Positions 10,789 to 50,708 of a DNA stretch of 64,000 nt are shown in pieces; the first letter of the stretch is position 1, and every line of letters begins with the position of its first letter. The translations under genes and the position numbers were made by a program. Below the pieces are notes generated by a model. That model searched no databases, had not been told where the DNA came from, and worked only from the letters and a program-made list of their open reading frames with translations. Where the stretch lies: positions 9,447 to 73,446 of the forward strand of contig JADHVZ010000001.1 of NCBI GenBank assembly GCA_016783745.1, given 5' to 3'. This DNA comes from Candidatus Omnitrophota bacterium (GTDB taxonomy: Bacteria > Omnitrophota > Gorgyraeia > JAHIPI01).

Positions 10789-10860
10789 GGGGACAGACAC
10801 TTTTTACATAATTAGGGACGAAGCCTAATTACTAAAGTGTCTGTCCCTATTTTATCGTAG
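10789..10860. repeat. Nested palindromic element copy 1. The outer stem GGGGACAGACACTTT pairs with AAAGTGTCTGTCCC. The inner stem is AATTAGG with CCTAATT.
   Basis: Read directly. Right flank is ATTTTATCGTAGAG. It lies in the divergent intergenic region between the TPR-GT gene and the beta-CASP gene. Confidence 0.8.
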
Positions 10861-11025
10861 AGTTAGATACTTTCTACTTACTTGAATTTCACCCCTTTCC
10901 ACCTTGCCAAAACCAGCCCGCAGGAGTAAAATAATTACTTGCCACAAACAGATCAGGGTGTTGCAACAGTATCTTGAGCCTAAGGTCTGATATAGCTAAC
11001 CAAAACAAACGGATTTTTCCAATAT

Positions 11026-12318
11026 ATGAAACTAACCATTCATCGCGGGACTCAAGAAATCGGTGGTAGCTGTGTAGAGCTAAACACAGGAAAGTCTCGA
11101 ATACTTATAGATCTCGGAATGCCGCTTGTAAATGATAAAAAAGAGTCTTTTGATTCAAAAACACTTACCAATAAATCTCCGGATGATCTTAAAAAACTAA
11201 AAATCCTTCCTGACATAAAGGGTCTGTATAGAGGTGAAGAAAAAGCCATAGACGGCATTCTTATTTCTCATTCCCATATGGATCATTATGGGTTTCTCAA
11301 GTTTGTGAATCCTGATATACCGATCTATATGAGTGAAGGCGCTAAGATGTTGGTCGAGATATCGGATATTTTTATTCCTCATAAAACGGGGAATCTTAAT
11401 GTAAAGACTATTGATAAAATAAAGAGTTTTGCTATAGGAGAATTTAAGGTCGATTCGTATCTGGCAGATCATTCAGCTTTTGACGCGCGTGCGTTCTTGA
11501 TCGAAGCTGATGGTAAGAGAATATTCTATTCAGGTGATTTCAGGGCCCATGGGAGGAAAAGCGTTCTATTCAAGCGTATGATCTCGCATCCACCGGAAGC
11601 TATTGATGCCCTGCTTATGGAAGGATCAATGATCGGAAGGAGTAATCAGGCCTATAAAGATGAAAATGCCATACAGTCCCGGATCGAAAAGATCTTAAAA
11701 TCCAGCAATAACGTAACTTTCCTGTTTACCTCATCGCAAAATATTGATAGGCTCGTCTCAGCGTACAAGGCATGTATTAAAACCGGACATATCTTCGTAA
11801 TAGACATTTATACAGCTTATATTCTGGACAAGCTTAGAAAAGTATCAAAGGGCATTCCGCAATTCAACTGGCGAAACATCAAGGTAAAGTTTTTGAAAAA
11901 CCAGGCCGACACACTGGCAAAGAAGGTATCAACAAAACTTCTTTATCATTACAATACACAAAAGATAGACATATTCGAGATAAACAGAAAGAAAAACAAG
12001 ATCCTTATGCTTGCGCGTGATAATTCGATTTTTCCCAAGATCATAAAAGGCATAGACGATCCCAGAGGCGCAACAGTCATCTATTCAATGTGGGGAGGCT
12101 ATTTAAACGACAGATTCCGCGACTTCTGCGCAAATAAAGGCCTTACAATCGAACAAGTCCACACAAGCGGCCATGCTACAGTTGAGGATCTGGAAGCATT
12201 TGCGAAGGCCATAAGCCCAAAAACGTTAATACCGATCCATACTTTTGAAGGACAGAAATACCCGGAGATGTTTGAAAACGTTAGAATCTTAAAAGACGGC
12301 GAGCTTTTTGAGATTTAA
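11026..12318 (+). CDS. beta-CASP family metallo-beta-lactamase-fold nuclease (RNase J / CPSF-like core, no KH domain)
   Basis: N-terminal GTQEIGGSCVEL (compare CPSF73 GQEVGRSC), MBL motif HSHMDHYG, ADHSAF...SGDF, and the C-terminal beta-CASP motif-C HTSGHA. Confidence 0.7.
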   Translation: MKLTIHRGTQEIGGSCVELNTGKSRILIDLGMPLVNDKKESFDSKTLTNKSPDDLKKLKILPDIKGLYRGEEKAIDGILISHSHMDHYGFLKFVNPDIPIYMSEGAKMLVEISDIFIPHKTGNLNVKTIDKIKSFAIGEFKVDSYLADHSAFDARAFLIEADGKRIFYSGDFRAHGRKSVLFKRMISHPPEAIDALLMEGSMIGRSNQAYKDENAIQSRIEKILKSSNNVTFLFTSSQNIDRLVSAYKACIKTGHIFVIDIYTAYILDKLRKVSKGIPQFNWRNIKVKFLKNQADTLAKKVSTKLLYHYNTQKIDIFEINRKKNKILMLARDNSIFPKIIKGIDDPRGATVIYSMWGGYLNDRFRDFCANKGLTIEQVHTSGHATVEDLEAFAKAISPKTLIPIHTFEGQKYPEMFENVRILKDGELFEI

Positions 12319-12353
12319 ATGTTAGATACGCGCCATAAATAGGAGGATTTACT

Positions 12354-12755
12354 ATGCAGATAGAAGTGTTTTCTTTGTGTGACGCAGCTACGGTTAACGC
12401 CGGTAAGTTAAATATATTGGGAGCCTTTGATACGATTTGGGCAAGAAAAATACCGATTGTGCATCCCCAATGTTCCGTTGCTCTCAGAATCAGATTTGAT
12501 CGTATTGAAAAGGGCGACCATAGTATATCAGTAAATTTTGTTGATGAAGATGGTAAGCATATTATGCCGGCAGCCAACGGCACTATAAGAATAAATATCC
12601 AGAATGGGCAGCGTTCCGCATCCGCGCATTTAGTCCTGAATATACAGGGCCTTAATCTTAAGAGGTGCGGGGAATATTCAGTGGATCTGGCTATAGATGG
12701 CAGAAGGGATTTATCTTTACCTCTTTATGTGAGAGAACATAAAGAGCGAAAATAA
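12354..12755 (+). CDS. Hypothetical protein (133 aa) between two nuclease genes
   Basis: GGAG RBS and a compact same-strand arrangement. No motif recognised. Confidence 0.4.
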   Translation: MQIEVFSLCDAATVNAGKLNILGAFDTIWARKIPIVHPQCSVALRIRFDRIEKGDHSISVNFVDEDGKHIMPAANGTIRINIQNGQRSASAHLVLNIQGLNLKRCGEYSVDLAIDGRRDLSLPLYVREHKERK

Positions 12756-12812
12756 TCTCATTACACTTAACAGCGTAAAAACTAATAAAGCTTATTTAAG
12801 GAAGATGAGCCG

Positions 12813-13595
12813 ATGAAATTATTGCGGACTATAATTATATTCGATCTTGAGACAACCGGCACATGGGTTGAAAAGGATAAGATCGTTGAGATCGGCATGG
12901 TTAAATTGATGCCGGACGGGACAAGGCAGACTTATGTAAAGCGTGTCAATCCGGGTATGCCGATCCCAAGGAATGTCAGCCGCCTTATTAATATTAACGA
13001 TGATGACGTTAAAGACGCGCCGCCTTTTAAGGATATAGCTAAAGAAGTGACGGAGTTTATAGGCGATTCCGACCTGGGCGGGTTTAATATCCTGAGGTTT
13101 GATCTGCCTATTCTTGAGCGCGAGCTTTATGGTGCCGGCTTTAGCTTTTATTGGCGCGAACGGGACATTTACGATGCTCAAAAGGTTTATCACATACATG
13201 AAAAGAGAGATCTGACAGCCGCTTATAAACTATACTGCGATAAAGAGCTTGAGAATGCTCATTCCGCCCTTGGTGACGCTGAGGCGACAGTTGAGATATT
13301 TGATTCCCAGATCAAAAGGTATGGGGCTCCGGAACAGGGTATAGAGTCTTTGAAAGATTTTGATTACGAGCGCTCCAGCGCATATTTTGATAAAGAGCGT
13401 AAGTTTTTCTGGTGGAACGGGCATCTGTATCCCGTATTCGGAAAGTACGGAAGGAAAAAACATATACAAGATATACTTAAGATAGATCGTCGGTATTTAG
13501 AGTGGATGCTTAGCTCTGATTTTAGTGAAGAAGTTAAAATGATGATTAAAAATGTTCTCAGCGGCAAATTTCCGCAAGCACCCGAGAACTTATAA
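12813..13595 (+). CDS. DnaQ-like DEDDh 3'-5' exonuclease with a C-terminal extension
   Basis: Exo I motif IIFDLETTG, exo II, and exo III HSALGDAEAT (H-x4-D, DEDDh type). About 90 extra C-terminal residues of unknown function. Confidence 0.7.
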   Translation: MKLLRTIIIFDLETTGTWVEKDKIVEIGMVKLMPDGTRQTYVKRVNPGMPIPRNVSRLININDDDVKDAPPFKDIAKEVTEFIGDSDLGGFNILRFDLPILERELYGAGFSFYWRERDIYDAQKVYHIHEKRDLTAAYKLYCDKELENAHSALGDAEATVEIFDSQIKRYGAPEQGIESLKDFDYERSSAYFDKERKFFWWNGHLYPVFGKYGRKKHIQDILKIDRRYLEWMLSSDFSEEVKMMIKNVLSGKFPQAPENL

Positions 13596-13600
13596 TTTTT

Positions 13601-14779
13601 TTATCCCGTATGGTAATCCCAGACGGCTTTTATATCCGAAAGAGGAACCACAGAAAGCTTTTTCCCCAATTTATAATTTGTTTTTCCCGGGTATATAACC
13701 CATAAATGCGCAAGCTCGAGATCTTTTAAAGCTATTTCCATGGATCTCGTTTTTCTCGGGGCATCGGAGTATTTAAATTCTACGCCCCAGTTTTTTCCTT
13801 TATGCTGCCAAAAAAGATCTAGCTCAGCCCCCGCATGCGTTTGCCAAAAGTAAAGTTCCTCATCGCGTTTATTCAGGCTTCTGGCGATACACTCAAGAGC
13901 AAGGCCTTCCCATGAGGCGCCAAGCTTATTATGCGAGAAGAGTTGTTTTTTATTACCTATAGATATGAGAGAGTGAAAAATACCCGAATCTCGTATATAT
14001 ATTTTCGGGCGTTTTATAAGACGCTTTTTTGTATTGGTGTACCATGGTTGCAAAACTCTGAGCATAAAAGTTCCTTCAAGGATATTTATGTATTTTTTTA
14101 CAGTCATGTCTGAGATACCGAAAGAGCGGCCTATTTCCGAGTGATTTACCACCTGCGAATGATAATGGCTTATCATGATCCAGAATTTTCTAAGAGTGCG
14201 GGCAGGTATGAATATTCCCAGTTGCGGAATATCTCTCTCAAGAAAAGTGCTTATGTAATTTTCAAGCCATAAAAAAGATTCATCATATGATTTTGCCAGA
14301 TAAGATCTTGGGAAGCCTCCTCGCAGCCATAATTTTTGCAGGTTCTTTTTTCCTATGTCTGAAAGAGTAAACCCGCCCAGGCGATGATAGGCTATTCTTC
14401 CCGCAAGCGATTCCGAGCTTTGCTGTATTAAATCCTTTGAAGCGCTCCCCAGTATTAGGTATTTCTGTTTTGGGTTTGAATCTACGAGATAGCGGATAAG
14501 CTGGAAGATGTCGGGTGCGCGTTGTATTTCGTCTATTACTATAAGCCCCTTGAGGTCCTCAAGCGCTAGCTGGGGGTTTTCAAGCCCGACCGAATCGCGC
14601 GGGTTTTCAAGGTCAAAATAATACTCGAATCTAATTTGATTGGCGATAACAGTTTTTCCGCATTGCCTGGGTCCCAGGATTGCCGTAACCGGAAAAGAAG
14701 AAGTTAGGTTATTAATATTTTCAGTCTCGGTTTTTCTTTTGATCAGTTTTTTCATGCTATAAGTATACGCTATATTCAT
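13601..14779 (-). CDS. AAA+ ATPase, AAA_14/DUF4143 family
   Basis: Walker A ILGPRQCGKT, Walker B LIVIDEIQ, and a C-terminal DUF4143-like region. Architecture typical of this widespread family. Confidence 0.7.
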   Translation of the reverse strand: MNIAYTYSMKKLIKRKTETENINNLTSSFPVTAILGPRQCGKTVIANQIRFEYYFDLENPRDSVGLENPQLALEDLKGLIVIDEIQRAPDIFQLIRYLVDSNPKQKYLILGSASKDLIQQSSESLAGRIAYHRLGGFTLSDIGKKNLQKLWLRGGFPRSYLAKSYDESFLWLENYISTFLERDIPQLGIFIPARTLRKFWIMISHYHSQVVNHSEIGRSFGISDMTVKKYINILEGTFMLRVLQPWYTNTKKRLIKRPKIYIRDSGIFHSLISIGNKKQLFSHNKLGASWEGLALECIARSLNKRDEELYFWQTHAGAELDLFWQHKGKNWGVEFKYSDAPRKTRSMEIALKDLELAHLWVIYPGKTNYKLGKKLSVVPLSDIKAVWDYHTG

Positions 14780-14837
14780 TGAAAAGTCAAACTATAACCT
14801 TGAGATTTCAAGGCAAAATATAGCCATGTATTTATGT

Positions 14838-14876
14838 AATTAGGCTCCGCCCCTAATTACTAAAGTGTCTGTCCCC
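14838..14876. repeat. Partial copy of the palindromic element (inner AATTAGG/CCTAATT hairpin plus AAAGTGTCTGTCCCC arm only)
   Basis: Read directly. The left outer arm is absent and the loop sequence differs from copy 1. Confidence 0.7.
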
Positions 14877-14994
14877 ATTTTTCCCAAGCATATTTCGCTT
14901 GGGATTTATTGTTATTGGGGGTATAATTTATATAGCTTATTTACAAATAACACACTCCTTGTGAATAAACCGAAATAGGAACATTGGAGTACTT

Positions 14995-15795
14995 ATGCGA
15001 AAAATAGGACTACAAATTTTTATAACTTTAATATTCTTGTTATCCGTAGTCAGTGCCAGGGTTTACTGCGATGAAATAAATCTTAAGAATGGTAATTCTA
15101 TAAAAGGTATTATTATAAAAGAATCCGAAGGATCGTTGACTCTTGAGATCGGGATAGGATCCATTACTGTCTTGAAAGAAGATATGGAGAGCATAAACAG
15201 GACTACAGAAGAAGAAAACGATCTTTTGAGGTCAGAATGGACAAGAAATAAGGCGGATAGGCAAAAGGAGTATCAGCGCATGAAGGAAAATGCATCAGAG
15301 GCTAATGCGCAAGAGATCGATTTAGAAGCGTTAGATGGATCAAGAAAAGACAACGTCGCAAAAAAAGAGAGTGAAAAGGCCTCGTCGGAAAAACCCTGGT
15401 ATGATTTTACAAGCCCTGAATCGACTTTTAATAGTCATATGTATGCTTGCAAAGCCTTGGACTTTGAAAAAAGCGATCTGTGCTATACAAAAGAATTTCA
15501 GAGTTTCACTAAAACTAATAAAGAATATAGATCCCATCGCAATACCGGGCAGCTGCGAAACGCATATGACTATTGGCATAATAAACCCTATAAACTTGAA
15601 ATGCACAGAAACAAGGCCATAATGCGCTTTTCGCCCCCATTTAAAAGGCCGGAACCCTTCTATTTTGTTAAAGAGGCGGATGGCTGGAAAATAGACGGGA
15701 TGTTTTCGTTCAATAATTTAATAATCGAGAATAGCGGTGGCTGGTTTTGGCGTAATTCCAAAATCGACAACGAAAAGGTATGGTTAAGCAAATAG
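14995..15795 (+). CDS. Secreted hypothetical protein
   Basis: Signal peptide MRKIGLQIFITLIFLLSVVSA, 266 aa, no recognised domain. AT-rich. Confidence 0.45.
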   Translation: MRKIGLQIFITLIFLLSVVSARVYCDEINLKNGNSIKGIIIKESEGSLTLEIGIGSITVLKEDMESINRTTEEENDLLRSEWTRNKADRQKEYQRMKENASEANAQEIDLEALDGSRKDNVAKKESEKASSEKPWYDFTSPESTFNSHMYACKALDFEKSDLCYTKEFQSFTKTNKEYRSHRNTGQLRNAYDYWHNKPYKLEMHRNKAIMRFSPPFKRPEPFYFVKEADGWKIDGMFSFNNLIIENSGGWFWRNSKIDNEKVWLSK

Positions 15796-15846
15796 GTCGA
15801 ATATCACTATTCGCGCTTTAGCTGAATAGTCAGTCTGATTTTGGCA

Positions 15847-15879
15847 AAATGGGGCAGCTGTCCCCATTTTATCGTAGAG
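15847..15879. repeat. Reduced copy of the palindromic element (AAAATGGGG-CAGCTG-TCCCCATTTT followed by ATCGTAGAG)
   Basis: It shares both flanks (GCAAAATGGGG and CCCCATTTTATCGTAGAG) with copy 1, but the centre collapses to CAGCTG. Confidence 0.7.
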
Positions 15880-15958
15880 TTTTCGGCTCGTCGCCATCCC
15901 ATTGCCTTGCCAATTCCCCTCATTGCTGGTATACTTGAAGGAAACGAGGAGGCGTTGA

Positions 15959-16204
15959 ATGACAATTGAAATGATACGATCAGCGCTAGGCTGGTGTTCT
16001 ATAATCAATATAGGATTACTCCTGTGGTGGGTTTTTGTTATTACGTTGGCACACGATCGGGTCTATAAATTTCACGGGAAATGGTTTAAGTTGTCGGTAG
16101 AAAAGTTTGACGAGGTCCATTATACGGGCATGGCGTTCTTTAAGATAGCCATATTTCTTTTCAATATTGTCCCATATTTCGCATTACGCATTATTGGTTC
16201 ATAG
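15959..16204 (+). CDS. Small membrane protein
   Basis: 81 aa with two hydrophobic helices. It is the first of four consecutive small TM ORFs. Confidence 0.35.
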   Translation: MTIEMIRSALGWCSIINIGLLLWWVFVITLAHDRVYKFHGKWFKLSVEKFDEVHYTGMAFFKIAIFLFNIVPYFALRIIGS

Positions 16205-16218
16205 GAAAAGGGGGTAAC

Positions 16219-16452
16219 ATGCTGGTGGTATTATCGGTAAGCATTTTTGCGGTATGCCTGGCTGTGGGGTTTTTCCTGCTCTTACGGCCGGAGCTGGTGA
16301 TAGAGATGCAGAGGCGGTTCTATGCATTGATAAACTGGCGGATGGAGCCTATCTCTATGGAGAAGGAGATACGCAATACCAGGATAATGGGCGGTGCCTT
16401 GATCGTTCCGACCTTGGTAGTGATAGTCTTATTTATCGTAGCTAATGTATGA
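16219..16452 (+). CDS. Small membrane protein
   Basis: 77 aa with two TM helices. GGGG RBS-like sequence upstream. Confidence 0.35.
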   Translation: MLVVLSVSIFAVCLAVGFFLLLRPELVIEMQRRFYALINWRMEPISMEKEIRNTRIMGGALIVPTLVVIVLFIVANV

Positions 16453-16708: not shown

Positions 16709-16772
16709 CGCGCAAAGATTGTCAGGCGCTTTGGTATACCAAGAAAGGATTATGCGCAATAGGTGAGGGAAA

Positions 16773-17039: not shown

Positions 17040-17165
17040 GCGATGATCCGTATTGATTATGATAAGTGCTGTTGGAAAGACGGCAAGTGTGTCAGCGGCT
17101 CTTGCGTACCGGCATGTAAATACGGCGCGATAATATCAGAAACATAAGAGGCAATAGGGGGCAGC

Positions 17166-17754: not shown

Positions 17755-17796
17755 CCCAATTAGACGCGCAATAGAGCGTGTTAGAAGGAGACAAAC

Positions 17797-24446: not shown

Positions 24447-27400
24447 ATGAAAAGACATTCCGATTTTGTCCATCTGCATACCCACACTCAGTTTAGCCTT
24501 CTCGACGGAGCCTGTCATATATCGCGTCTCTTTCAGCTGGCCGAGAAGGAGCGAATGCCTGCCGTAGCTATCACAGACCACGGCAACATGTTCGGAGCCA
24601 TTGAGTTTTACCGGAAGGCACTCGCCCACGGAATAAAACCCATAATAGGTTCTGAAGTCTACATCTCTCCCGAAAGCCGTTTTGAAAAATCCGCACAGGG
24701 CATCCAGGAAGCATCTTTTCACCTGATACTTTTGGCGAAAGACACAGAAGGTTATAAAAACCTCATGAAGCTGATAACCGCGGGTTACTTGGAGGGATTT
24801 TATTACCGGCCCAGAATAGATAAGGATATTCTAAAGAAGCACCATAAGGGGCTGGTATGCCTTTCCGCGTGCCTCAAAGGCGAAATACCGCATCTGATAA
24901 AGAACGGACAGGTGGAGCAGGCAAAAAATACGGCAGTGTTTTTTAAGGATCTTTTCGGGAAGGATTTTTATCTTGAGATACAGGATAATCTTATTCAGGA
25001 TCAGATAGATGTGAATCGCGTACTGATCGATATGGGTAAGCAGCTGGACATCCCTCTCGTAGCTACTAACGATGTCCATTATTTGAAGAAGGAAGACGCT
25101 TATGCCCATGAGGCCTTGATGGCGCTTCAGACACAGGCTACGCTGGATGATCCCAATCGGATGAGGCTGCAGACGGACGAGTTTTATTTGAAGAACGCAG
25201 AACAGATGAAGCGCAAATTTGGGACAGAATGCCCCGAGGCTATAAAAAATACAATAGCGATAACGGAAAAATGTAATCTTGAGCTTGATTTCAAAAAAAC
25301 CCACCTACCGCATTACAGGCCTCCGGCGGGAAAGACCAGGGAGGGATATTTCAGGGAGCTGGTGGATGAGGGACTGAAAAGGATTTACCCTGAAATAACC
25401 GATGAGATAAGAGACAGGGTCGAGCATGAACTGAAGATCATAGAGAAGAGCGGATTTATCAGCTATTTTCTTATAGCCTGGGATTTTGTACACTATGCCA
25501 AAGGGAAAGGGATACCGGTAGGTCCGGGCCGTGGGAGCGCGGCGGGAAGCGTGGTGAGTTACGCTTTAGGTATAACGGACATCGATCCGCTTAAATATGA
25601 TCTGCTCTTTGAAAGATTCCTGAATCCCGAGAGGATCAGCATGCCTGATATCGACATAGATTTTTGCTATGAGAGAAGAAGTGAAGTCATAGATTACGTT
25701 GTTCAAAAATACAGTAAGGATAATGTAGCGCAGATAATAACCTTCGGAACGCTAATGGCAAAGGGAGTCATCCGCGATGTAGGAAGGGTGATGAGTATGT
25801 CCTATAGCGAGGTAGACAGGATCGCCAAGATGGTCCCTAATGATCTGAATATGACTCTACAGCAAGCGCTCAAGTCCTCTCCGGAGCTAAAAAACCTTTA
25901 CGAGACCGACCAGCGTGTTACGCAGCTTATCGACACTTCAATGGTGTTAGAGGGGTTAAGCCGTCACGCATCCACTCACGCCGCCGGCGTAGTTATATGC
26001 GAAAAGCCTCTTACCGAATATATTCCGCTTATCAAAATGGGGGACGGCCAGATAACCACCGGTTATCCCATGGCTTCGCTTGAGAAGATAGGCCTTCTTA
26101 AGATGGATTTTCTGGGCCTGAGGACTCTTACGGTTATAAGCGAGACGCTAAAAATCATAAAAAAGACAATAGGAGTAGAGTTTGAGATCGACAAGATCCC
26201 GACGGACGATGAAAAAACGTTCCGGTTACTTTCCAACGCTGAATCAGTAGGCGTATTCCAGGTGGAAAGCTCCGGAATGCGTGACCTTCTAAAAAAATTT
26301 AAGCCTGAAAAATTTGAAGACCTGATAGCTATTCTGGCCCTCTTCAGGCCGGGCCCCATGGGAAGTGGTATGCTTGACGACTTTATCACAAGAAAACAAG
26401 GTAAAGTGAAGATACAATATGACCATGAGAGCTTAGAGCCTATATTGAAGGAGACATACGGCATCATCGTATTTCAGGAGCAGGTCATGAGGATAGCTTC
26501 CACCCTGGCCGGATTCTCACTCGCCCAAGCCGATTCGTTAAGGCGCGCGATGAGTAAAAAGACTCCGGAGGTCATGGTAGAGGCCAGAAAGCATTTTATT
26601 GAAGGTTGCCTGAAAAAAGATATCAGCAGAAGGATAGCGGATAAGGTCTTCAGTTTTATCGAATATTTCGCGGGTTATGGATTCAATAAATGTGTGGCCG
26701 GGTCTACGGAAATAATAAATGCGGATACAGGTGAGTATGTAAAGGTAGAAGAATTATTCACTAAAAAAGACATTATAAATACATTTAGTTGTCACGAAAA
26801 GACTTTAAAGATCATTCCTCAAAGGATGAAAGACATTGTCTGTAATGGCATCAAAAAAATATACCGTTTAAAAACACGCACCGGAAAGGAAATCGTAGTA
26901 ACGAATAACCATCCTTTTTTGACAGTCTCAGGCTGGAAAGAATTAAAAGACCTTAAGGACGGTGACATGATCGCTACTCCGAGAAAAATACCTCTATCTC
27001 CGGAATATGGCATGGAAGAATATAAGATCATATCTTTAGCCAAATTGCTGTCGGAGGGGAACCTATGCCATACCAGCGGCCTTTATTTCTATAGTAATAG
27101 CAGAGAAGAGGTGGATGAATTCACGGCAAATATCGAGCGCTTTGAAAAGACAAGGGCAAGGGCATATCAGAGGGACGATAAATATGAGGTATATGTCGGC
27201 ACGGGACAAGATACAAAATTCTTTAAAAATCAGGTTCCCTGGAATAAAAGGCCTTCAGGCCAGACCGCTACCGTCCAAAGCCGATTTTCAAGGTGCGGCG
27301 CCAGGATCTGGATAGAGGAATTGGGATTAAGCAATAAGAAGGCCTATGAGAAATTCATCCCGCAAGAAGTTTACTCTCTTTCTACGGAAAAGCTCGCATT

Positions 27401-29303
27401 ATTTTTTGGTAAGTTATGGTCAGGGGACGGATTTATTTTCGGCAAAAGTAATTCTATTCCATACTATGCTACGTCCTCAAAAAGGATGGCTAAAGATGTG
27501 CAAAACCTGTTATTGAGACTGGATATAATATCCTCTGTCACGAAGAAGGAATTTAAATATAAGTATAAAGGAATAACGCAAAAGAGGTATGGTTATACGG
27601 TTTATTTGTTAGGACGTGAGTCTGTAGAGAGATTTTCAGAGAAGATCTGTCAGCATGTCACAGGAAAAGCTGACCAAATATCCCGTCTAAGGGATTATTA
27701 TGCTCACCTTCCCAGAGACAAAGAGTCAAAGGATATAATTCCCCAGGAGATAAAAAATATTATTCGTAAAGAAAAGGAAAGGGTAGGAAAGGGCTGGAGA
27801 GAGATCGAAAGAGAGAGCGGTGTCTGCACAAAAGAGCTTTGCGGACGGCTAAGGCCGCATAAAAAAGGATTTAAGCGGAGCACCGTAAATAGACTAGCTT
27901 CCTACTTTGATTCCGGCGAACTTTTTAAATATGCGGCCTCTGACATTTATTGGGACCCGATAGTATCAATAGAATATGTCGGCATGGAGAATACATATGA
28001 TATTGAGATGGAGCAGACGCATAATTTTATTGCTGACGGAATAATAGTCCATAATTCACATAGCGCCGCGTACGCGATGATCTCATACAGGACCGCGTAT
28101 CTTAAAGCGAATTATCCCGTGGAGTTTATGACGGCGCTTCTGACCTCTGAAAAAGATAATACAGATAAGATCGCTCAATATATAGAAGAAGCAAACAGGA
28201 TGGGCATAAAGATACTTCCGCCTGATGTAAACGAAAGTTATTCAAGATTCACAATTATAAAGGATAAATCAGAAGAAAACAAATACGGGCAGTCGATAAG
28301 GTTCGGTTTATCCGCGGTGAAAAATGTGGGACACGGCGCTATTGATTCCATCATCGAAGCTAGAGAAAGTGAAGGTAAATTCAGCTCTCTTTACCAGTTT
28401 TGCGAACATGTCAATTCAAGGCTGGTTAATAGAAAGGTCATAGAGAGCCTGATAAAGTGCGGGGCATTCGATTCTACGGGTTTATTCCGGTCGCAGCTTA
28501 TGGCGATACTTGACAGGGCAATGGAAGTGGCCGGCGGGATCCAGAAGGACAGGATAGGCGGCCAGTTATCGTTTTTTGATACTTTTGAGGCAAGCGGTGA
28601 TTTTAAGAAAAGCTTTCAGGAGATACCCGACATCAAAGAGTGGCCGGAAAATCAGCTTCTTACTTTTGAAAAGACACTGCTGGGTTTTTATATAACAAAG
28701 CACCCTCTTACAAGCTTTGAGAAGATCTTAAGATTGTACGGATCCACCAGTATCATGGGCTTGAGCAACTTTAAAGACGGCGCCATCATCCATATGGGCG
28801 GTATCTTGAATAAGGTAAAGCTTACTACTACCAAGAAAACCGGTGAACGCATGGCTATAGCTCAACTTGAAGACTTAAGCGGTATGGTGGAAGTGCTGGT
28901 GTTCCCGAAAGCGTATAATAATATCGGTAGATTCTTTAAAGCCGACACAATGATCTTTTTAAAAGCCAGAGTCAGCTTAAGAGAGGAAGAGCCTAAGCTT
29001 ATAGCTGAAGACGCGTTTCCTCTTGAAGAAGTACAGGAGAAGATGACCAAATCCATTGGAATAAGCATAATTACCAGCGGATTGGATAAAAAGACGCTGG
29101 ATTCTCTTAAGTTTATTCTATCCAACCACAAAGGGAATATTCCCGCATACATATATTTTAATACCCCCGAAAAGAAGAGGGTCATGATGGCCCTAAGCCG
29201 CGACTATAGCATTAAGCCATCAACCGAGCTTATAGATGAACTGGAGGAGATCCTTGGCGAAGGTTCAGTTTCGGTAAAGGCTTCCCACTCCAACGGCAGA
29301 TAA
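24447..29303 (+). CDS. dnaE: DNA polymerase III alpha subunit DnaE, carrying an in-frame intein
   Basis: PHP motif HLHTHTQFSLLDGA, palm/fingers motifs, and the conserved FAGYGFNK|SHSAAYA block. In this gene that block is interrupted by 455 aa between FNK and SHSAAY. Confidence 0.9.
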   Translation: MKRHSDFVHLHTHTQFSLLDGACHISRLFQLAEKERMPAVAITDHGNMFGAIEFYRKALAHGIKPIIGSEVYISPESRFEKSAQGIQEASFHLILLAKDTEGYKNLMKLITAGYLEGFYYRPRIDKDILKKHHKGLVCLSACLKGEIPHLIKNGQVEQAKNTAVFFKDLFGKDFYLEIQDNLIQDQIDVNRVLIDMGKQLDIPLVATNDVHYLKKEDAYAHEALMALQTQATLDDPNRMRLQTDEFYLKNAEQMKRKFGTECPEAIKNTIAITEKCNLELDFKKTHLPHYRPPAGKTREGYFRELVDEGLKRIYPEITDEIRDRVEHELKIIEKSGFISYFLIAWDFVHYAKGKGIPVGPGRGSAAGSVVSYALGITDIDPLKYDLLFERFLNPERISMPDIDIDFCYERRSEVIDYVVQKYSKDNVAQIITFGTLMAKGVIRDVGRVMSMSYSEVDRIAKMVPNDLNMTLQQALKSSPELKNLYETDQRVTQLIDTSMVLEGLSRHASTHAAGVVICEKPLTEYIPLIKMGDGQITTGYPMASLEKIGLLKMDFLGLRTLTVISETLKIIKKTIGVEFEIDKIPTDDEKTFRLLSNAESVGVFQVESSGMRDLLKKFKPEKFEDLIAILALFRPGPMGSGMLDDFITRKQGKVKIQYDHESLEPILKETYGIIVFQEQVMRIASTLAGFSLAQADSLRRAMSKKTPEVMVEARKHFIEGCLKKDISRRIADKVFSFIEYFAGYGFNKCVAGSTEIINADTGEYVKVEELFTKKDIINTFSCHEKTLKIIPQRMKDIVCNGIKKIYRLKTRTGKEIVVTNNHPFLTVSGWKELKDLKDGDMIATPRKIPLSPEYGMEEYKIISLAKLLSEGNLCHTSGLYFYSNSREEVDEFTANIERFEKTRARAYQRDDKYEVYVGTGQDTKFFKNQVPWNKRPSGQTATVQSRFSRCGARIWIEELGLSNKKAYEKFIPQEVYSLSTEKLALFFGKLWSGDGFIFGKSNSIPYYATSSKRMAKDVQNLLLRLDIISSVTKKEFKYKYKGITQKRYGYTVYLLGRESVERFSEKICQHVTGKADQISRLRDYYAHLPRDKESKDIIPQEIKNIIRKEKERVGKGWREIERESGVCTKELCGRLRPHKKGFKRSTVNRLASYFDSGELFKYAASDIYWDPIVSIEYVGMENTYDIEMEQTHNFIADGIIVHNSHSAAYAMISYRTAYLKANYPVEFMTALLTSEKDNTDKIAQYIEEANRMGIKILPPDVNESYSRFTIIKDKSEENKYGQSIRFGLSAVKNVGHGAIDSIIEARESEGKFSSLYQFCEHVNSRLVNRKVIESLIKCGAFDSTGLFRSQLMAILDRAMEVAGGIQKDRIGGQLSFFDTFEASGDFKKSFQEIPDIKEWPENQLLTFEKTLLGFYITKHPLTSFEKILRLYGSTSIMGLSNFKDGAIIHMGGILNKVKLTTTKKTGERMAIAQLEDLSGMVEVLVFPKAYNNIGRFFKADTMIFLKARVSLREEEPKLIAEDAFPLEEVQEKMTKSIGISIITSGLDKKTLDSLKFILSNHKGNIPAYIYFNTPEKKRVMMALSRDYSIKPSTELIDELEEILGEGSVSVKASHSNGR
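26691..28055 (+). mobile_element. Class-1 intein (455 aa) with a LAGLIDADG homing-endonuclease domain, inserted in DnaE between FNK and SHSAAY
   Basis: Block A CVAGSTEII (Cys1), block B VVTNNHPFLT (TxxH), the C-terminal IIVHN and +1 Ser. Two LAGLIDADG-like motifs (LAKLLSEGNL and LALFFGKLWSGDGFI). The insert is more AT-rich than the flanking dnaE sequence. Confidence 0.8.
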
Positions 29304-30214: not shown

Positions 30215-30332
30215 GAAAAGGGGACAGACACTTTTTAAGCGTTGTAAAAGGGGACAGACACTTTTTTGAGGCTACGTACAAAGCTTCAAAAAAGTGTCTG
30301 TCCCTATGCTAAAAAGTGTCTGTCCCCTTTTT
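30215..30332. repeat. Double-nested copy of the palindromic element: two forward AAAAGGGGACAGACACTTTTT arms and two reverse AAAAGTGTCTGTCCC arms
   Basis: Read directly. The outer pair (30218-30232 with 30313-30327) and inner pair (30248-30262 with 30290-30304) sit immediately after the HU stop with flanking A/T runs, consistent with a bidirectional terminator-like structure. Confidence 0.8.
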
Positions 30333-30416
30333 TGTCCGCTTTTTTGTTGACTTTTAGGGTGCCTATGATATTATAATGAGGTATTAATAACATATATGCA
30401 TAAATTTTGAGGTAAA

Positions 30417-45866: not shown

Positions 45867-45872
45867 GCATAA

Positions 45873-46697
45873 ATGGATGCGATAAAACTGTATCTTAAAG
45901 ACATAAAAAATATCCCGCTTCTTACCGCTAAAGAAGAGTTGGAATTAGCAAATAAGATCAAGAAGGGCAGCAAGGCTGCGAGGGCGAAGATGATCCGCTC
46001 AAACCTTCGTCTCGTGATCAATATTGCCAAGCGTTACAGCTATCTGGGTGTTCCCATGATGGACCTCATCGAGGAAGGTAATCTGGGGCTCATGAAGGCG
46101 GTAGAGAAGTATAACCCGAAACGCGGATATAGGTTTTCGACGTATGCTGCCTGGTGGATACGGCAGTATATCACCCGTGCCATCGCGAATCAGGGGAAAA
46201 CTATCCGCGTACCTGTATATATGGTGGAAACCGCCATGCGCTTTAAAAAGGTATCGGAACAGCTTCTAATGGAACTTAAAAGAAAAGCCTCGCTAAGGGA
46301 AGTAGCCAAAAGGATGAGACTGTCCATGAAGAAGATGAGGCAGCTCAATAAGATGGCGGCAAAGATATCATCGCTGAACGCGCCTATAGGCAGTGAGGGG
46401 ACAGCCGAGTTTATGGATCTTATAGAGGATGAGAATGTATCTACCTCCGCTGATGAGCTCATGGAGTTTTTCAAGAAAGAGCATGTAGAGGAATTGCTTG
46501 AGCGTATGTCGCCGCGGGAGAAGAAGATACTAACGCTTCGTTTTGGGCTGAAGGACGGCATTCCCCGCACTTTAGGCTCTACTGCTAAACGTTTTGGGAT
46601 AACAAGAGAGCGTGTGCGCCAGATCGAGAACGCGGCCATGAGAAAACTTAGAGAATATTTGAAACAGCAGGGAATAATGTCGGCTAAGGAGGAGTAG
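45873..46697 (+). CDS. RNA polymerase sigma-70 family factor (short, 274 aa, regions 2-4)
   Basis: Region 2 (RYSYLGVPMMDLIEEGNLGLMKAVEKYNP...FSTYAAWWIRQYI), region 3, and region 4 HTH (TLGSTAKRFGITRERVRQIENAAMRKL). Confidence 0.75.
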   Translation: MDAIKLYLKDIKNIPLLTAKEELELANKIKKGSKAARAKMIRSNLRLVINIAKRYSYLGVPMMDLIEEGNLGLMKAVEKYNPKRGYRFSTYAAWWIRQYITRAIANQGKTIRVPVYMVETAMRFKKVSEQLLMELKRKASLREVAKRMRLSMKKMRQLNKMAAKISSLNAPIGSEGTAEFMDLIEDENVSTSADELMEFFKKEHVEELLERMSPREKKILTLRFGLKDGIPRTLGSTAKRFGITRERVRQIENAAMRKLREYLKQQGIMSAKEE

Positions 46698-46703
46698 GCG
46701 AGC

Positions 46704-47219
46704 ATGGAAGACCTGAAAAAAATCATACGCGATGTACCCGATTTTCCTAAAGCAGGGATAATTTTTAAAGATATCACGCCGCTTTTACAGGATCAAGGCT
46801 TTTTTAAAAAAGCCGTGGACAGTATTTGCGGGCAGTACAAGGATAAAAAGATAGATGCGGTTGTGAGCATTGAATCAAGAGGTTTCATTTTTGGTTCCGC
46901 TATTGCTTATAAGCTTGGAGCGGGACTTGTGCCTGTCCGGAAGAAGGGAAAGCTTCCCTATAAAACATATTCCGCTACTTATGATCTTGAATACGGGCAG
47001 GATACACTTGAGATACATCAGGACGCGGTGAGTAAAGGTACCCGGGTTTTGATAGTGGATGACCTTCTGGCCACAGGCGGCACGCTTGGCGCGACCATCG
47101 ATCTTGTGAAAAAGATGGGCGCGGACATAGCGGGCATTGCTTTTTTAATAGAATTGACTTTTTTGAAAGGAAGAGAGAAGCACAAGGATCAAGAGATCTT
47201 TTCTTTGATAAAATATTAA
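46704..47219 (+). CDS. apt: Adenine phosphoribosyltransferase
   Basis: PRPP-binding loop VLIVDDLLATGGT and N-terminal DFPKAGIIFKDITPLL. Confidence 0.85.
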   Translation: MEDLKKIIRDVPDFPKAGIIFKDITPLLQDQGFFKKAVDSICGQYKDKKIDAVVSIESRGFIFGSAIAYKLGAGLVPVRKKGKLPYKTYSATYDLEYGQDTLEIHQDAVSKGTRVLIVDDLLATGGTLGATIDLVKKMGADIAGIAFLIELTFLKGREKHKDQEIFSLIKY

Positions 47220-47314
47220 AGATAGATGCGCCTGCCCGCCTGCGCTATTGTGTAAGTGTTTCTTACGAAGTAAGCTTCGGCGGACACGGCTTCTCATAGA
47301 AGAGTTTCATAGAT

Positions 47315-47393
47315 GCGCCTGTAGCTCATCAGGATAGAGCGGAAGTTTCCTAAACTTCGTCAGCAGGGGGTTCGAGTCCCTCCAGGCGCACCA
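47315..47393 (+). tRNA. tRNA-Arg (anticodon CCT), CCA-encoded, with an atypically long (7-nt) variable loop
   Basis: Hand-folded: acceptor GCGCCTG with CAGGCGC, D stem GCTC with GAGC, anticodon stem GAAGT with ACTTC, loop TTCCTAA (U33, A37), T arm GGGGG-TTCGAGT-CCCTC, discriminator A plus CCA. Confidence 0.65.
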
Positions 47394-47483
47394 CTATAGC
47401 GGTCGGGCTCCGGGGCCAAAAAGTGAGGAATGGGCTTTTTGCCCCTTCGTCCTGCAGCAATGGAATAAGCGGGCAGGACTAGC

Positions 47484-47593
47484 GACCGAGCGCGAAATGC
47501 GCGAGGAAGTGCAGTGTTCAACTGAACGCTGCCGACCGAGCGCGAAATGCGCGAGGAAGTGCAGTGTTCAACTGAACGCTGCCGACCGAGCGC
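47484..47593. repeat. 50-bp tandem direct repeat x2.2 (GACCGAGCGCGAAATGCGCGAGGAAGTGCAGTGTTCAACTGAACGCTGCC)
   Basis: Two exact 50-bp units plus a 10-bp third start. Together with the 47596-47632 palindrome they lie inside 26-bp direct repeats at 47403-47428 and 47663-47689. Confidence 0.8.
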
Positions 47594-47721
47594 TTTTAAA
47601 GAGAAAACTTTTTAGAAAAGTTTTCTCTTTAAGGATCTCTTTCAAAATTCAGCTATGCCGAGTCAAGGCACACTACGACGTTCGGGCTCCGGGGCTAAAA
47701 AGTGAGGGATTATAATTTATT

Positions 47722-48375
47722 ATGATAGATCTGCATACTCATACCATACTTAGTGACGGGGAGCTCCTGCCGAGCGAGCTTGCCAGGAGAGCCGAGGTCA
47801 AAGGCTACCGCGCCATCGGCATCACTGACCACTGCGACTGGTCGAATATAGATTTTGTGGTACCGCATATAGCGAAGGCCGCGGCCAGCCTGAACCGGCA
47901 CTGGAAAATAAAAGTTATCCCCGGAGTCGAACTTACCCATGCCCCTATTGAAGAAATTGAATCACTTACCAGGTTTGCCAGGGAAAACGGCGCCAAGATA
48001 GTAGTAGCTCACGGAGAGACTCTAAGTGAACCCGTCATAAAAGGAACAAATAGGAGAGCCATAGAGTGCGGAGTCAACATACTGGCGCACCCGGGAAATA
48101 TCTCTGAAGAGGATGCCCGGCTCGCTAAAGAAAAAGGTGTCATGCTTGAGATCACGGCACGCAAGAGCCATAACGCGACCAATAAGCATGTAGCGGATAT
48201 TGCGCGTAAAACAGGCGCCAAATTAGTATTTAATACGGATGCTCATAAAGCAGAGAATATTATAACCAAGGATAACGCCATAGAAGTCATGAGCAGCGCC
48301 GGACTGTCAAAAGAAGAGATGGAAAAAGTTTTTCAAAACTCAGAAAACTTTATTGCTTCACTTTTAATTTCTTAA
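47722..48375 (+). CDS. PHP-domain phosphoesterase (histidinol-phosphatase/YcdX-like)
   Basis: N-terminal IDLHTHTILSDG and ITDHCD metal-binding motifs. Confidence 0.6.
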   Translation: MIDLHTHTILSDGELLPSELARRAEVKGYRAIGITDHCDWSNIDFVVPHIAKAAASLNRHWKIKVIPGVELTHAPIEEIESLTRFARENGAKIVVAHGETLSEPVIKGTNRRAIECGVNILAHPGNISEEDARLAKEKGVMLEITARKSHNATNKHVADIARKTGAKLVFNTDAHKAENIITKDNAIEVMSSAGLSKEEMEKVFQNSENFIASLLIS

Positions 48376-48707
48376 CAGAATAGATTTTTTGTTATATTAA
48401 TAGTATTATATAGTTGTGATTTTTTTTGTTCTGAGACCTTGACAAAAGTGAGCTTTGTGGTATACTCTTTACCAAAGTGAAGGTATCTTTTAGTTACGCC
48501 TATACCACGGTAGGTAGCTTTAATCCGGCAAGAAAGGGGGTGAAATCCTTAAGGCTCAAGTTACCTATTAAAGCGTGATATAGATATAGATGTAGACAAA
48601 TTCGGGTCAAGTAACACGCATCTAAGGAATTCATCACAGGCCTGAATTCGAATGATATATTTTAAAATAAATTTAACGTATTAAATCGTAACATGAGGAG
48701 GTATAGT

Positions 48708-50195
48708 ATGAAGTTATTAAGGGGGCTATTTGTATTAGCTCTTGCAATAGCATTCACCATACCTGCACTCGCTGAAACGCAAAGCATCAAGCTAAGCGGC
48801 GATGTTATCGTCAGGCACATTATGCGTGACGATTATGACTTCAATAAGCATGATGATGATGTAGCTGACACAGACGCAAGCTATTTCATGCATAACGCCG
48901 AGATCCAGCTGGATGCCGATCTTACAGACAATGTTTCAGCGACTATCAGGGTGATGAATCAGACAGATTGGAACGTAAGCTATATTACAGAAGGAGCCAA
49001 TACCCACACAGACTATGATCCGCATGCCGTAGTCGGCGCCGGCGGCCTTGACGGCCCGCAGGATAACTACGGTGAGTTCGATGTCATAGTCGACCTCGCG
49101 TATGTGACTTTAAAGGAATTCTTTTTCACTCCTTTGACAGTCAGGATCGGTAAGCAGGATATATGGTTTGGTAAGGGTTTCATCATCGGCGGATTATTCG
49201 ATGACCCGAACGGCCAGATATCAGGTGATGAATGGTCAACCAATAATTCTTTCAAAGCCATAAGAGCGACTTGGGATTATGAGCCTTGGACAATTGACGG
49301 TGTGTTCGCGATGATAGAGGAAAACGAAGTCCAGGCAGATGACGACCAGCAGCTCTACGGTGTAAACGTTGGTATTGACCTGTCAGAATATAAAAATGCG
49401 GAAGTAGAAATGTACTACTGGTACATGATAGACGATGAAATACCGAACTTCATCACCAGCAAGGAAGACCGCATCCACGTCCTTGGTACGCGAGGCAGCT
49501 TTGATCCTCACGAAGACATCACTCTCTTTGGTGAACTCGCGTTACAGGGTGGCACGTACATAGCAAACGCAGTGCAGCCTGAGCCCAAGAAGAGAAATGC
49601 ATGGGCTTGTGATCTTGGCGCTGACCTCAGACTCTGGGAAGATGATTATGCCTGGAGGCCTGTATTCGGAGCCGAGTATATATTCTATTCCGGTAATAAT
49701 GAGCATAACACGACATTAGCCGGTGAGGACTTTAAGGGTTGGAACAGAATGTTCCGCGGAAAGTTAGACAGCGCGATCCACGATCATTATAACGTGTTCT
49801 ATACCGCTGGAATGCCCACAACGGAGAGAGCTGATACAAACCTGCATCAGTTTATCCTGAAGTGGGGTCTTCAGCCAATGGATAACCTTTCGGTTGACGG
49901 GAGATATATACATTTCCGTCTGCATGAAAACGCATGGGGGCCTTCAAACGCTGCCGGTACGATGGGCTATGGCGTACAGGAGAAAGGTGTCGGAAACGAA
50001 GTCGACATAGAGTGGACGTATGAATATACAGAAGACGTCACATTCGGTCTCTTAAGCGCGTGGTTCTGGTCCGGAGATTACTACTGGACTCCTGAAGATA
50101 CAGACAGCACAGCGGCTGTAGTTGCCGGAGCGAACTCTGGTAGTTCAAAGAGCGTTGCAAGAGAAGTTGTTGCTACTTGCAAAGTCTCGTTCTAG
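48708..50195 (+). CDS. Secreted putative outer-membrane beta-barrel protein (start at MKLLRG after GGAGG; the ORF track begins at 48693)
   Basis: Signal peptide (LAIAFTIPALA), an alternating hydrophobic pattern, an aromatic-rich sequence, and a terminal ...CKVSF with C-terminal Phe typical of OM beta-barrels. Confidence 0.45.
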   Translation: MKLLRGLFVLALAIAFTIPALAETQSIKLSGDVIVRHIMRDDYDFNKHDDDVADTDASYFMHNAEIQLDADLTDNVSATIRVMNQTDWNVSYITEGANTHTDYDPHAVVGAGGLDGPQDNYGEFDVIVDLAYVTLKEFFFTPLTVRIGKQDIWFGKGFIIGGLFDDPNGQISGDEWSTNNSFKAIRATWDYEPWTIDGVFAMIEENEVQADDDQQLYGVNVGIDLSEYKNAEVEMYYWYMIDDEIPNFITSKEDRIHVLGTRGSFDPHEDITLFGELALQGGTYIANAVQPEPKKRNAWACDLGADLRLWEDDYAWRPVFGAEYIFYSGNNEHNTTLAGEDFKGWNRMFRGKLDSAIHDHYNVFYTAGMPTTERADTNLHQFILKWGLQPMDNLSVDGRYIHFRLHENAWGPSNAAGTMGYGVQEKGVGNEVDIEWTYEYTEDVTFGLLSAWFWSGDYYWTPEDTDSTAAVVAGANSGSSKSVAREVVATCKVSF

Positions 50196-50213
50196 TTTAG
50201 TTTGATCTGAACG

Positions 50214-50260
50214 CAAAAAAGCCCGGCATTTCTAACGAAGTGCCGGGTTTTTTTGTTTTT
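50214..50260 (+). terminator. Rho-independent terminator (GCCCGGCA ... TGCCGGGC stem with T-run)
   Basis: AAAAAAGCCCGGCATTTCTAACGAAGTGCCGGGTTTTTTTGTTTTT sits directly after the OMP stop, with an A-run upstream and a T-run downstream. Confidence 0.75.
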
Positions 50261-50261
50261 C

Positions 50262-50290
50262 TTGACAACCATTTAGTAATTATGTATACT
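50262..50290 (+). promoter_or_regulatory. Sigma-70-like promoter TTGACA-17-TATACT
   Basis: Exact -35 hexamer and a near-consensus -10, about 40 nt upstream of the 50330 start. Confidence 0.45.
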
Positions 50291-50329
50291 TTACTAAAAT
50301 AAATCGATCAATAAAACCGGAGGTGAGGC

Positions 50330-50647
50330 ATGGCGGAGGATAAAGTAGTACAGGAAGGCAAGATATTCGCGGTAATCGGATACCTTGGTATCTTATGCCT
50401 TATACCTTTATTATTCAAGAAGGAGAACAAATTCGCCCTGTTCCACGGCAAACAAGGGCTGGTTATCTTTATAGGTGAGGTAGCCCTGGGCATTATAAGC
50501 GTAGTGCCGTTCCTGGGCTGGCTGGTGGGATTTTTCGGTGTTTTGATCTTCGGCATCCTTTCGCTAGTAGGTATTGTGCAGGTTTTAATGGGCAATTACT
50601 GGAGAGTGCCTTTAGTCGCTGATTTAGCCGATAAGTTTAATATATAG
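50330..50647 (+). CDS. DUF4870-like small membrane protein
   Basis: KFALFHGKQGL followed by two or three TM helices resembles the DUF4870 family. Confidence 0.45.
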   Translation: MAEDKVVQEGKIFAVIGYLGILCLIPLLFKKENKFALFHGKQGLVIFIGEVALGIISVVPFLGWLVGFFGVLIFGILSLVGIVQVLMGNYWRVPLVADLADKFNI

Positions 50648-50663
50648 TTTTGAGTATCTAACA

Positions 50664-50708
50664 ATAGGGGACAGACACTTTTAGACATAAAAGTGTCTGT
50701 CCCCTATT
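50664..50708. repeat. Simple hairpin copy of the palindromic element (AATAGGGGACAGACACTTTTAGACATAAAAGTGTCTGTCCCCTATT)
   Basis: Read directly: 19-bp perfect arms with a 7-nt loop, between the DUF4870 gene and the radical SAM gene. Confidence 0.8.

Follow-up and report, generated by a model that had tools for sequence, protein, structure and literature searches.

Palindromic intergenic repeats in an Omnitrophota genome as a candidate family of TIRYT-type terminal-repeat dimers

The 64-kb stretch of DNA analysed here (hereafter, the window) belongs to a metagenomic contig of an Omnitrophota bacterium and, together with about 19 kb of flanking contig, provides about 83 kb of this genome. A family of palindromic elements recurs between its genes. 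Homologues of the window's HisS with 52-67% identity carry the names Candidatus Omnitrophica/Omnitrophota, and several metagenome assemblies from ENA and Logan contain contigs that match the window sequence. When up to two mismatches are allowed, the motif GGGGACAGACACTTT is found nine times in the window, against 0.08 matches expected by chance, and none of 100 shuffles of the window reaches this number. The matches fall at four of five loci (copies 1-5), the fifth (copy 3) being a collapsed copy within the same flanks, and the neighbouring contig sequence (L231) adds two further loci. Although the window is about 90% coding, all seven loci are intergenic: two lie between divergent, three between co-directional and two between convergent genes. 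Copies 1 and 5 and L231 14985 are dimers of two inverted arms, copy 4 is a nested and copy 3 a collapsed dimer, and copy 2 and L231 18162 are single arms, as listed below.

10782-10862: copy 1, full element; GCAAAAT, left arm GGGGACAGACACTTTTT (from 10789), inner hairpin, right arm AAAGTGTCTGTCCCT (10834-10848) and ATTTTATCGTAGAG.
14812-14882: copy 2, half element; left-flank remnant GGCAAAAT (14812-14819), inner hairpin and right arm, the left arm missing.
15843-15879: copy 3, collapsed element; GGCAAAAT, GGGGCAGCTGTCCCC (15851-15865) and ATTTTATCGTAGAG, the centre deleted.
30216-30334: copy 4, nested double palindrome; outer arms 30216-30237 and 30310-30331, 100% complementary, with a T-run after them.
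50664-50708: copy 5, simple dimer; ATAGGGGACAGACACTTTTA, a 4-nt loop and TAAAAGTGTCTGTCCCCTAT, with arms at about 50664-50683 and 50688-50707.
L231 14985: extra locus, dimer between convergent genes; 2 nt separate it from the stop codon of a 1031-aa gene, an A-tract precedes it and a T-run follows.
L231 18162: extra locus, single arm.

The family palindromes are the longest inverted repeats of the window and its strongest hairpins. Predicted RNA folds reach -38.3 kcal/mol for copy 1 (z -8.3), -83.1 kcal/mol for copy 4 (z -14.4) and -35.4 kcal/mol for copy 5, with z-scores of the three against shuffles of -8 to -14, and the spacing from arm to arm ranges from 4 to 72 nt across the family. In copy 1 the arms (10784-10803 and 10834-10853) enclose the inner hairpin TAATTAGG-N7-CCTAATTA at 10809-10831. 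The same hairpin recurs in copy 2 as GTAATTAGG-N7-CCTAATTAC (14836-14860) with a different loop; next come the right arm AAAGTGTCTGTCCCC (14862-14876) and ATTTTT. In copy 3, GGGGCAGCTGTCCCC is set between flanks, GGCAAAAT and ATTTTATCGTAGAG, that are identical to those of copy 1. As the alignment indicates, the sequence common to copies 1-3 extends past the palindrome into these flanks, copy 2 retaining the GGCAAAAT boundary, and because the flanks are shared the three copies are regarded as one subfamily at different stages of decay. The inner hairpin and the flank ATCGTAGAG are absent from every other fetched locus. This anatomy bears out, coordinates included, a sequence-only reading of the same stretch, which had described a palindromic family at five intergenic loci, an inner hairpin that keeps its stem while its loop varies, and a copy whose centre has collapsed between unchanged flanks. 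A correction concerns copy 2, presented there as a right half: only the right arm is indeed present, but the left-flank remnant is retained as well. Moreover, the two loci in the flanking contig extend the family beyond the five described.

With respect to gene organization, copy 1 lies between the divergent starts of a TPR gene (8848-10677, minus strand) and an MBL-fold gene (11026-12318, plus strand), and copy 2 between the divergent genes 13601-14779 (minus strand) and 14995-15795 (plus strand), a DUF4143 ATPase and an unannotated open reading frame (ORF). Promoter-like sites face outward on both sides of these two copies. Copies 3, 4 and 5 sit between co-directional genes. Specifically, copy 3 is found 51 nt past the stop codon of the ORF 14995-15795, with a terminator-like match at 15851-15864, while copy 4 starts 13 nt past the stop codon of HU and is directly followed by the promoter-like site of hisS (30347-30374). 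Copy 5 occupies the whole 63-nt spacer between a DUF4870-like ORF (50330-50647) and a radical-SAM gene, and no T-run follows its hairpin. The radical-SAM start codon, called at about 50711, is only 3 nt past this hairpin, and no Shine-Dalgarno-like sequence is present outside the stem.

The nested copy 4 contains an inner element at 30246-30304, with arms 30251-30273 and 30282-30304 and the loop GAGGCTACGTACAAAGCTTC. The whole composite, of about 110 nt, is also found in two contigs of another metagenome (JACKQG01), L191 and L177, in flanks unrelated to those of the window; therefore, the composite itself is a dispersed unit. In L191 the 20-nt inner loop is identical to that of copy 4. In L177 (668-790) the same loop is inverted with respect to both window 30216-30331 and L191 and carries two substitutions, with the outer loop segments unchanged in orientation. 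This arrangement points to a flip-flop recombination between the arms, or to an independent insertion of the inner element.

The position of some copies right after genes raises the possibility that the palindromes are preferred intrinsic terminator hairpins only, whose sequence has been homogenised by selection or gene conversion with no mobility involved. The sequence features of intrinsic terminators, that is a GC-containing stem-loop, a T-run and a position past a stop codon on the transcribed strand, are present at copies 3 and 4 and at L231 14985, where the T-run is accompanied by an A-tract on the other side of the hairpin, and are lacking at copies 1 and 2, which lie between divergent genes, and at copy 5, which has no T-run. 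Copy 4 is probably the terminator of HU. Accordingly with such a role, the position of the HU-hisS hairpin is conserved in two related genera: in the orthologous spacers of two related Omnitrophota (HisS identity with the window protein, 79% and 65%), a single hairpin is followed by a T-run. The arms of this hairpin read AGGGACAGAGACC...GGTCTCTGTCCCTTTTT in L138 and AGGGACAGACACCATCGTCCC...GGGACGATGGTGTCTGTCCCTTTTT in L139 and L140; in other words, the GGGACAGA core, the position and the T-run are retained, and the rest of both arms has changed in concert. A purely terminating function, however, is hard to reconcile with copies 1 and 2, which are located between the 5′ ends of divergent genes and upstream of both promoter-like sites, with copy 5, which abuts a start codon, with the existence of half copies and with the nested composite in unrelated flanks. 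As two of the seven loci lie between divergent gene starts and the elements do not always follow stop codons, the family is not merely a preferred terminator, and we consider this explanation unlikely.

A further alternative is that the elements are miniature inverted-repeat transposable elements (MITEs) of an insertion sequence of the DDE type, for example one with Tn3-like GGGG ends, or that they represent an assembly artefact. The inverted repeats of the Tn3 family begin with GGGG, and so do the arms of the family; in addition, several matches in metagenome-assembled genomes (MAGs) are placed at contig ends. On the other hand, the flanks show no target-site duplication at any copy, nor at L177, L191 and L202, and no DDE transposase was found with the motif, whose sole recurrent neighbour is an enzyme of the Y1 type. 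Moreover, the sequences are identical and contig-internal in three to five independent assemblies, and contig ends within repeats are what a true multi-copy repeat produces. In this respect, four other assemblies begin inside copy 4, as expected because a multi-copy repeat causes such breaks. DDE-type MITEs or an artefact appear, thus, very improbable, the lack of target-site duplications being the reason to set the former aside.

Known RNA families give no indication on the nature of the elements: no Rfam family is at or above its gathering score at the element loci, where merely sub-threshold matches to generic long hairpins occur, and the sole Rfam match in the window is a tRNA. A 13-mer of the motif has no complementary match in the ribosomal RNA of an E. 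coli rrn operon, and a full-text search of the literature for the motif sequence turned up only unrelated eukaryotic primers.

The motif recurs well outside this genome. A scan of species-representative genomes (596 Gb) listed at least 112 stretches with the 15-mer; since about 1100 matches to a 15-mer are expected by chance, single matches were given no weight, and paired, arrayed or multi-locus matches were used. Among the matches listed, hairpin dimers of the motif occupy no fewer than 10 loci in one Steroidobacteraceae MAG, many of them at contig ends, and dimers are also present in Usitatibacteraceae, in a gammaproteobacterial MAG, in an Omnitrophota MAG (L102), in WS1 and in Verrucomicrobiota. 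In the Chthoniobacterales the motif is very dense, with up to seven copies (at most two to three mismatches) in 8 kb, as singles and tandem direct arrays. A scan of metagenomes with the 18-mer AAGGGGACAGACACTTTT retrieved 74 stretches with a GC content from 31% to 71%, with hairpin dimers in 24 and tandem arrays in 10. Viral contigs gave no match to the 18-mer and 19 single matches to the 15-mer, once per contig and never in pairs or arrays; this is the level that chance would give, and a phage origin was dropped.

Two arrangements of the motif in other contigs differ from those of the window. In two GC-rich soil or sediment contigs, a lone AAAAGTGTCTGTCCCCTTTTT (on the tRNA strand) with no partner arm lies 17 nt past the 3′ CCA of a tRNA gene (L170 905-922 and L174 4699-4716). 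In a Spartobacteria MAG (L111 598-698 and 2578-2737), a unit of about 100 nt carries the motif pointing outward at both ends, AAAGTGTC(C/T)GTCCCC ... AGGGACAGACACTTT, so that its arms are arranged in the opposite way to those of the window dimers; a second such unit lies 2 kb away.

In other phyla, the motif is associated with genes for Y1 transposases. These genes were searched in the window and in the fetched loci of genomes with the hairpin type by tblastn, jackhmmer and a custom hidden Markov model, and were found solely in loci of Verrucomicrobiota and of a Treponema type. In the Verrucomicrobiota loci, the exact 15-mer or a variant with one or two mismatches is located 15-85 nt upstream of an ORF that encodes about 340 aa. 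At L019 the motif is present in five tandem copies, the last one 15 nt ahead of the transposase ORF; L107, L083 and L067 have the motif likewise upstream, and at L146 three direct copies upstream and one inverted copy 310 nt downstream of the gene are the only ones in 9 kb. The occurrence of the same 15-mer in tandem direct arrays beside transposase genes further argues against an exclusive role of the repeat as terminator. Pfam identifies the ORF product as a Y1_Tnp / IS200-like protein (E 4e-12), whose top NCBIfam match is ‘REP-associated tyrosine transposase’ (RAYT; REP, repetitive extragenic palindromic), under the cut-off of that model. Its AlphaFold model (mean pLDDT, the predicted local distance difference test, 80.5) has as top PDB match 4er8, the E. 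coli RAYT-REP hairpin complex; the C-terminal part is modelled with low confidence, and Pfam detected no C-terminal helix-turn-helix (HTH) domain in these proteins. In particular, the L019 protein (343 aa) carries the motifs NHFH, WE and YIDLNP, and BLASTP matches it to two published TIRYTs (tyrosine transposases associated with terminal inverted repeats), gbm2474 and hch1378, at E 2e-16 and 9e-19. Homologues number in the thousands, and many are labelled RayT by JGI. Many clusters at 90% identity contain from dozens to 171 members, mostly from contigs of 1-2 kb, which suggests that the gene itself is multi-copy and assembly-breaking, that is, similar to an insertion sequence and unlike a single-copy domesticated RAYT.

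Other lineages of the Y1 protein are accompanied by variants of the repeat, such as AAAGGGACAGGCATTTT in the genome of a Luteolibacter isolate and arrays of AAATAAAGGGACG in another clade. A short and distant Y1_Tnp (187 aa), of a type found in termite-gut Treponema, is preceded by GGGGGACACACACTTTT at a distance of 55 nt, and two inverted copies follow it downstream. More generally, in loci of this type GGGGGACACACACTTTT or AGGGACAGA(C/G) precedes the gene and inverted copies follow it; in the homologues, the upstream sequence is AGGGACAGAG, AGGGACAGAC or GGGGACAGAG and the downstream one GGTCTGTCCCCC. At L219 and L230, the Y1 gene stands between upstream copies and inverted copies on its downstream side; a homologue search with the short protein of L219 recovered proteins of termite-gut Treponema and none of Omnitrophota.

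These associations bring the family close to a described class of repeats. TIRtrons, whose transposases are the TIRYTs, consist of RAYT-like genes flanked by terminal inverted repeats instead of GTAG REPs; many of their repeats carry GGGGWSAS, and some form moderately abundant families arranged in dimers and clusters as REPs are (Di Nocera et al. 2013, PMC3733652). TIRYTs correspond to TnpAY1 subclass 2.1, for which Quentin et al. (2018, PMC6006769) quote the repeat consensus GGGG[AT][CG]A[CG]; besides a long HTH-like tail, the signatures of its proteins are NH[YF]H/NHVH, W[EQ] and YIELNP/Y[IV]HLNP. The arm head of the window family, GGGGACAG, agrees with the consensus GGGGWSAS: full arms at four of the five loci start with (G/A)GGGACAG, whereas in copy 3 this holds for the right arm only, the left one reading GGGGCAG. 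Like the TIRtron/TIRYT repeats (Bertels group 1 RAYTs), the family is scattered through intergenic DNA as singles, dimers and clusters, and in other genomes its motif flanks Y1 genes with the subclass 2.1 motifs NH[YF]H, W[EQ] and YI(E/D)LNP. At variance with the TIRtron/TIRYT systems, the host phylum Omnitrophota is not covered by those surveys, the palindromes formed by the Omnitrophota dimers are long and perfect and in some cases nested, the core, extended to 15-19 nt, is identical across several phyla and no cognate TIRYT is seen within the 83 kb read.

The REP/REPIN-RAYT systems of E. coli and Pseudomonas (PMC3116915, PMC3479197), in which REPINs are dimers of REPs, share with the family short, multi-copy intergenic palindromes, two inverted units forming a hairpin dimer, singlets as decay products and the lack of target duplication. 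Their Y1 HUH enzyme is flanked by the same repeats, as is the enzyme beside the family's motif in other phyla, and some of their copies act as terminators or mRNA stabilisers, a role that is putative for the family. The REPIN-type arrangement is, in fact, present in the window, with two inverted, hairpin-forming units separated by a short spacer. The stems of the family, however, are perfect and long and not short and bulged, and the associated enzyme is of the long, often multi-copy subclass 2.1 type, as opposed to the single-copy RAYTs of subclasses 2.2 and 2.5. In addition, the canonical 5′ GT[AG]G foot of REPs is absent from the family, whose arms begin with GGGG; the only GTAG is inside ATCGTAGAG, 9 nt 3′ of the palindrome, in two copies only. 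Judging from these sequence features, the elements are neither canonical GTAG REPs nor DDE-type MITEs. As for the IS200/IS605 insertion sequences and their palindrome-associated derivatives, they also combine a Y1 HUH transposase with hairpin-forming ends and no target-site duplication, but their ends are dissimilar left and right imperfect hairpins, unlike the family's arms, which are inverted copies of one sequence; moreover, the proteins associated with the motif have the RAYT-type YxxxNP and IS200 has YxxxQ (Table 1, PMC6006769). Yet another kind of repeat differs in that the family motif crosses phyla and adjoins Y1 transposases, namely the uptake sequences. These elements (the Neisseria DNA uptake sequence, DUS, and the Pasteurellaceae uptake signal sequence, USS) are fixed motifs that occur as inverted pairs doubling as terminators, are lineage-specific and are not known to be linked to transposase genes.

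Taken together, we consider it probable that the window palindromes are TIRYT-type terminal-repeat dimers, moved in trans by a Y1 HUH enzyme on single-stranded DNA and subsequently subject to decay and nesting, with the T-run copies after genes serving as terminators. According to this model, the unit would be an arm of about 15-24 nt, (GC)AAAA(T)-GGGGACAGACAC-TTTT, with the GGGGACAG head as the conserved recognition determinant, and two inverted arms would constitute a REPIN-like dimer able to form a hairpin in single-stranded DNA or RNA. The transposase that makes or moves the copies in trans would have its gene in another part of the genome, or would have been present formerly, and its action on single-stranded DNA would leave no target-site duplication. 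Later decay would reduce elements to halves (copy 2) or remove their centre (copy 3), and the placement of one element inside the loop of another would generate nested ones (copy 4). Finally, copies landing just after a gene with a T-run would be kept as intrinsic terminators, as may be the case of copy 4 after HU, of copy 3 and of the L231 copy after the 1031-aa gene. The family, its hairpin potential, its confinement to intergenic DNA, its dispersal and the presence of its motif beside the transposase in other phyla are observations; mobilisation in this genome by an enzyme present now or formerly, its single-stranded-DNA mechanism and the terminator activity of copies 3 and 4 are predictions of the model.

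Several observations weigh against this model. Neither the window and its 19 kb of added flank nor any of the Omnitrophota contigs fetched yielded a Y1 transposase gene, and the link to the transposase rests, therefore, on other phyla. No insertion polymorphism was seen between samples, all copies being identical in three to five independent assemblies. Furthermore, Quentin et al. report no REP-like repeats near subclass 2.1 genes (PMC6006769), and GGGGWSAS is a short and degenerate consensus, which a GGGG-headed arm fits by chance once in 32. Lastly, in several Verrucomicrobiota loci the motif is seen solely upstream of the transposase gene, and because of this placement it could be an operator and not a transposon end.

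This last point introduces the most serious of the rival explanations, namely that the elements are double-stranded DNA binding sites, operators or nucleoid-organising sites, for a protein recognising GGGGACAGACAC, possibly through the HTH-like C-terminal domain of TIRYTs, and that they are regulatory and not transposed. Its weight derives from the upstream-only placement just mentioned and from the fact that the sequence, and not just the structure, is conserved, over a GC range of 31-71% and several phyla and in single, tandem and inverted copies. Arrays in the promoter region of transposase genes, the position of copies 1 and 2 between divergent promoters and the HTH-like tails described for subclass 2.1 proteins (PMC6006769) would also fit a binding site. 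Conversely, an arm spacing that varies from 4 to 72 nt is not operator-like, and the genes flanking the copies have no function in common. The Verrucomicrobiota proteins have no Pfam HTH and a C-terminal part of low model confidence, and the patterns of nesting and decay resemble those of a repeat population. In the light of these observations, a regulatory origin of the family seems to us improbable.

Returning to the terminal-repeat dimers moved in trans, this explanation also clarifies what becomes of the interpretation offered by the sequence-only reading. Its proposal of a mobile or recombining unit gains support from the seven dispersed loci, from the composite found in other flanks and from the motif beside Y1 genes elsewhere. 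The label REP/MITE-like holds as far as the REPIN-like dimers and the fit to the TIRYT consensus are concerned, and fails on the missing GTAG foot and target-site duplications. Similarly, the suggestion of a RAYT/IS200-like transposase elsewhere finds a counterpart in the RAYT-like Y1 genes flanked by the motif in other phyla, but not in the 83 kb read, in agreement with the statement that the window has no transposase. That some copies double as terminators is made plausible by the post-stop position and T-run of copies 3 and 4 and by the conservation of the HU-hisS hairpin. The Omnitrophota family is a new addition to a known, little-studied kind of repeat. An uncharacterised repeat of a poorly known candidate phylum can probably be assigned to a defined enzyme-repeat system; the family explains why assemblies of this organism fragment at repeat sites and flags hairpins that probably end transcription, for example after HU.

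A broader reading is that GGGGACAGACAC(TTT) is the single, deeply conserved recognition sequence of one RAYT-like Y1 clade, spread across or retained in at least five to six phyla (Omnitrophota, Verrucomicrobiota, Pseudomonadota, WS1, Coriobacteriia and, as a variant, Spirochaetota), in other words a pan-bacterial REPIN-like system. The sequence is found as palindromic dimers, as tandem arrays and, in Coriobacteriia, as a hairpin loop with co-varying stems. If this reading were true, the repeat sequence would be set by the enzyme and not by the lineage, the opposite of classical REPINs, and TnpAY1 subclass 2.1, reported without REP-like repeats, would indeed drive genome-wide repeat families. 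Possible as it is, we hold this reading as doubtful. The identical core of 15-19 nt across several phyla goes beyond the literature surveyed; it is not established as a single system and is worth a survey. Should the recurrence across phyla hold up, this transposase class would recognise a fixed sequence and would have widely seeded repeat families, which bears on the origin of REP-like elements.

In the Coriobacteriia loci (L150, L171, L172, L179, L212 and L215 from metagenomes; L030 and L034 from Olsenella and Collinsella), the 12-13 nt GGGGACAGACAC(T) constitutes the loop of a hairpin whose stems vary by taxon, being CCACCACAAA/TTTGTGGTGG, CCCCTCTCAAAAA/TTTTTGAGAGGGG or GTGCAAA/TTTGCAC. In combining a constant loop with stems that co-vary, these hairpins resemble the origins that HUH nucleases recognise.

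Some features of the window and of its surroundings are worth mentioning. The region 8000-16000 has a low GC content (0.36-0.40; most of the rest is at 0.42-0.49) and may be an accessory region; three of the five element loci fall in it, as do the TPR, MBL-fold, RNase T-like and DUF4143 ATPase genes. Just past the left end of the window (L231 15072-16715), three tandem paralogous ORFs of 162 aa with no Pfam matches adjoin an extra element copy. Two inverted repeats are unrelated to the family: a perfect AT-rich hairpin with 17-nt arms at 47596-47632, about 200 nt after a tRNA gene (47315-47390), and a 23-nt inverted pair, CAAATTCGCGCGAAGCACGAATT / AATTCGCGCGAAGCACGAATTTG, at 51668-51754. Finally, DnaE, the DNA polymerase III alpha subunit (24447-29303, 1618 aa), contains an intein with a LAGLIDADG homing-endonuclease domain, and the DnaE of the relative L138 (1634 aa) bears an intein with a LAGLIDADG domain as well.

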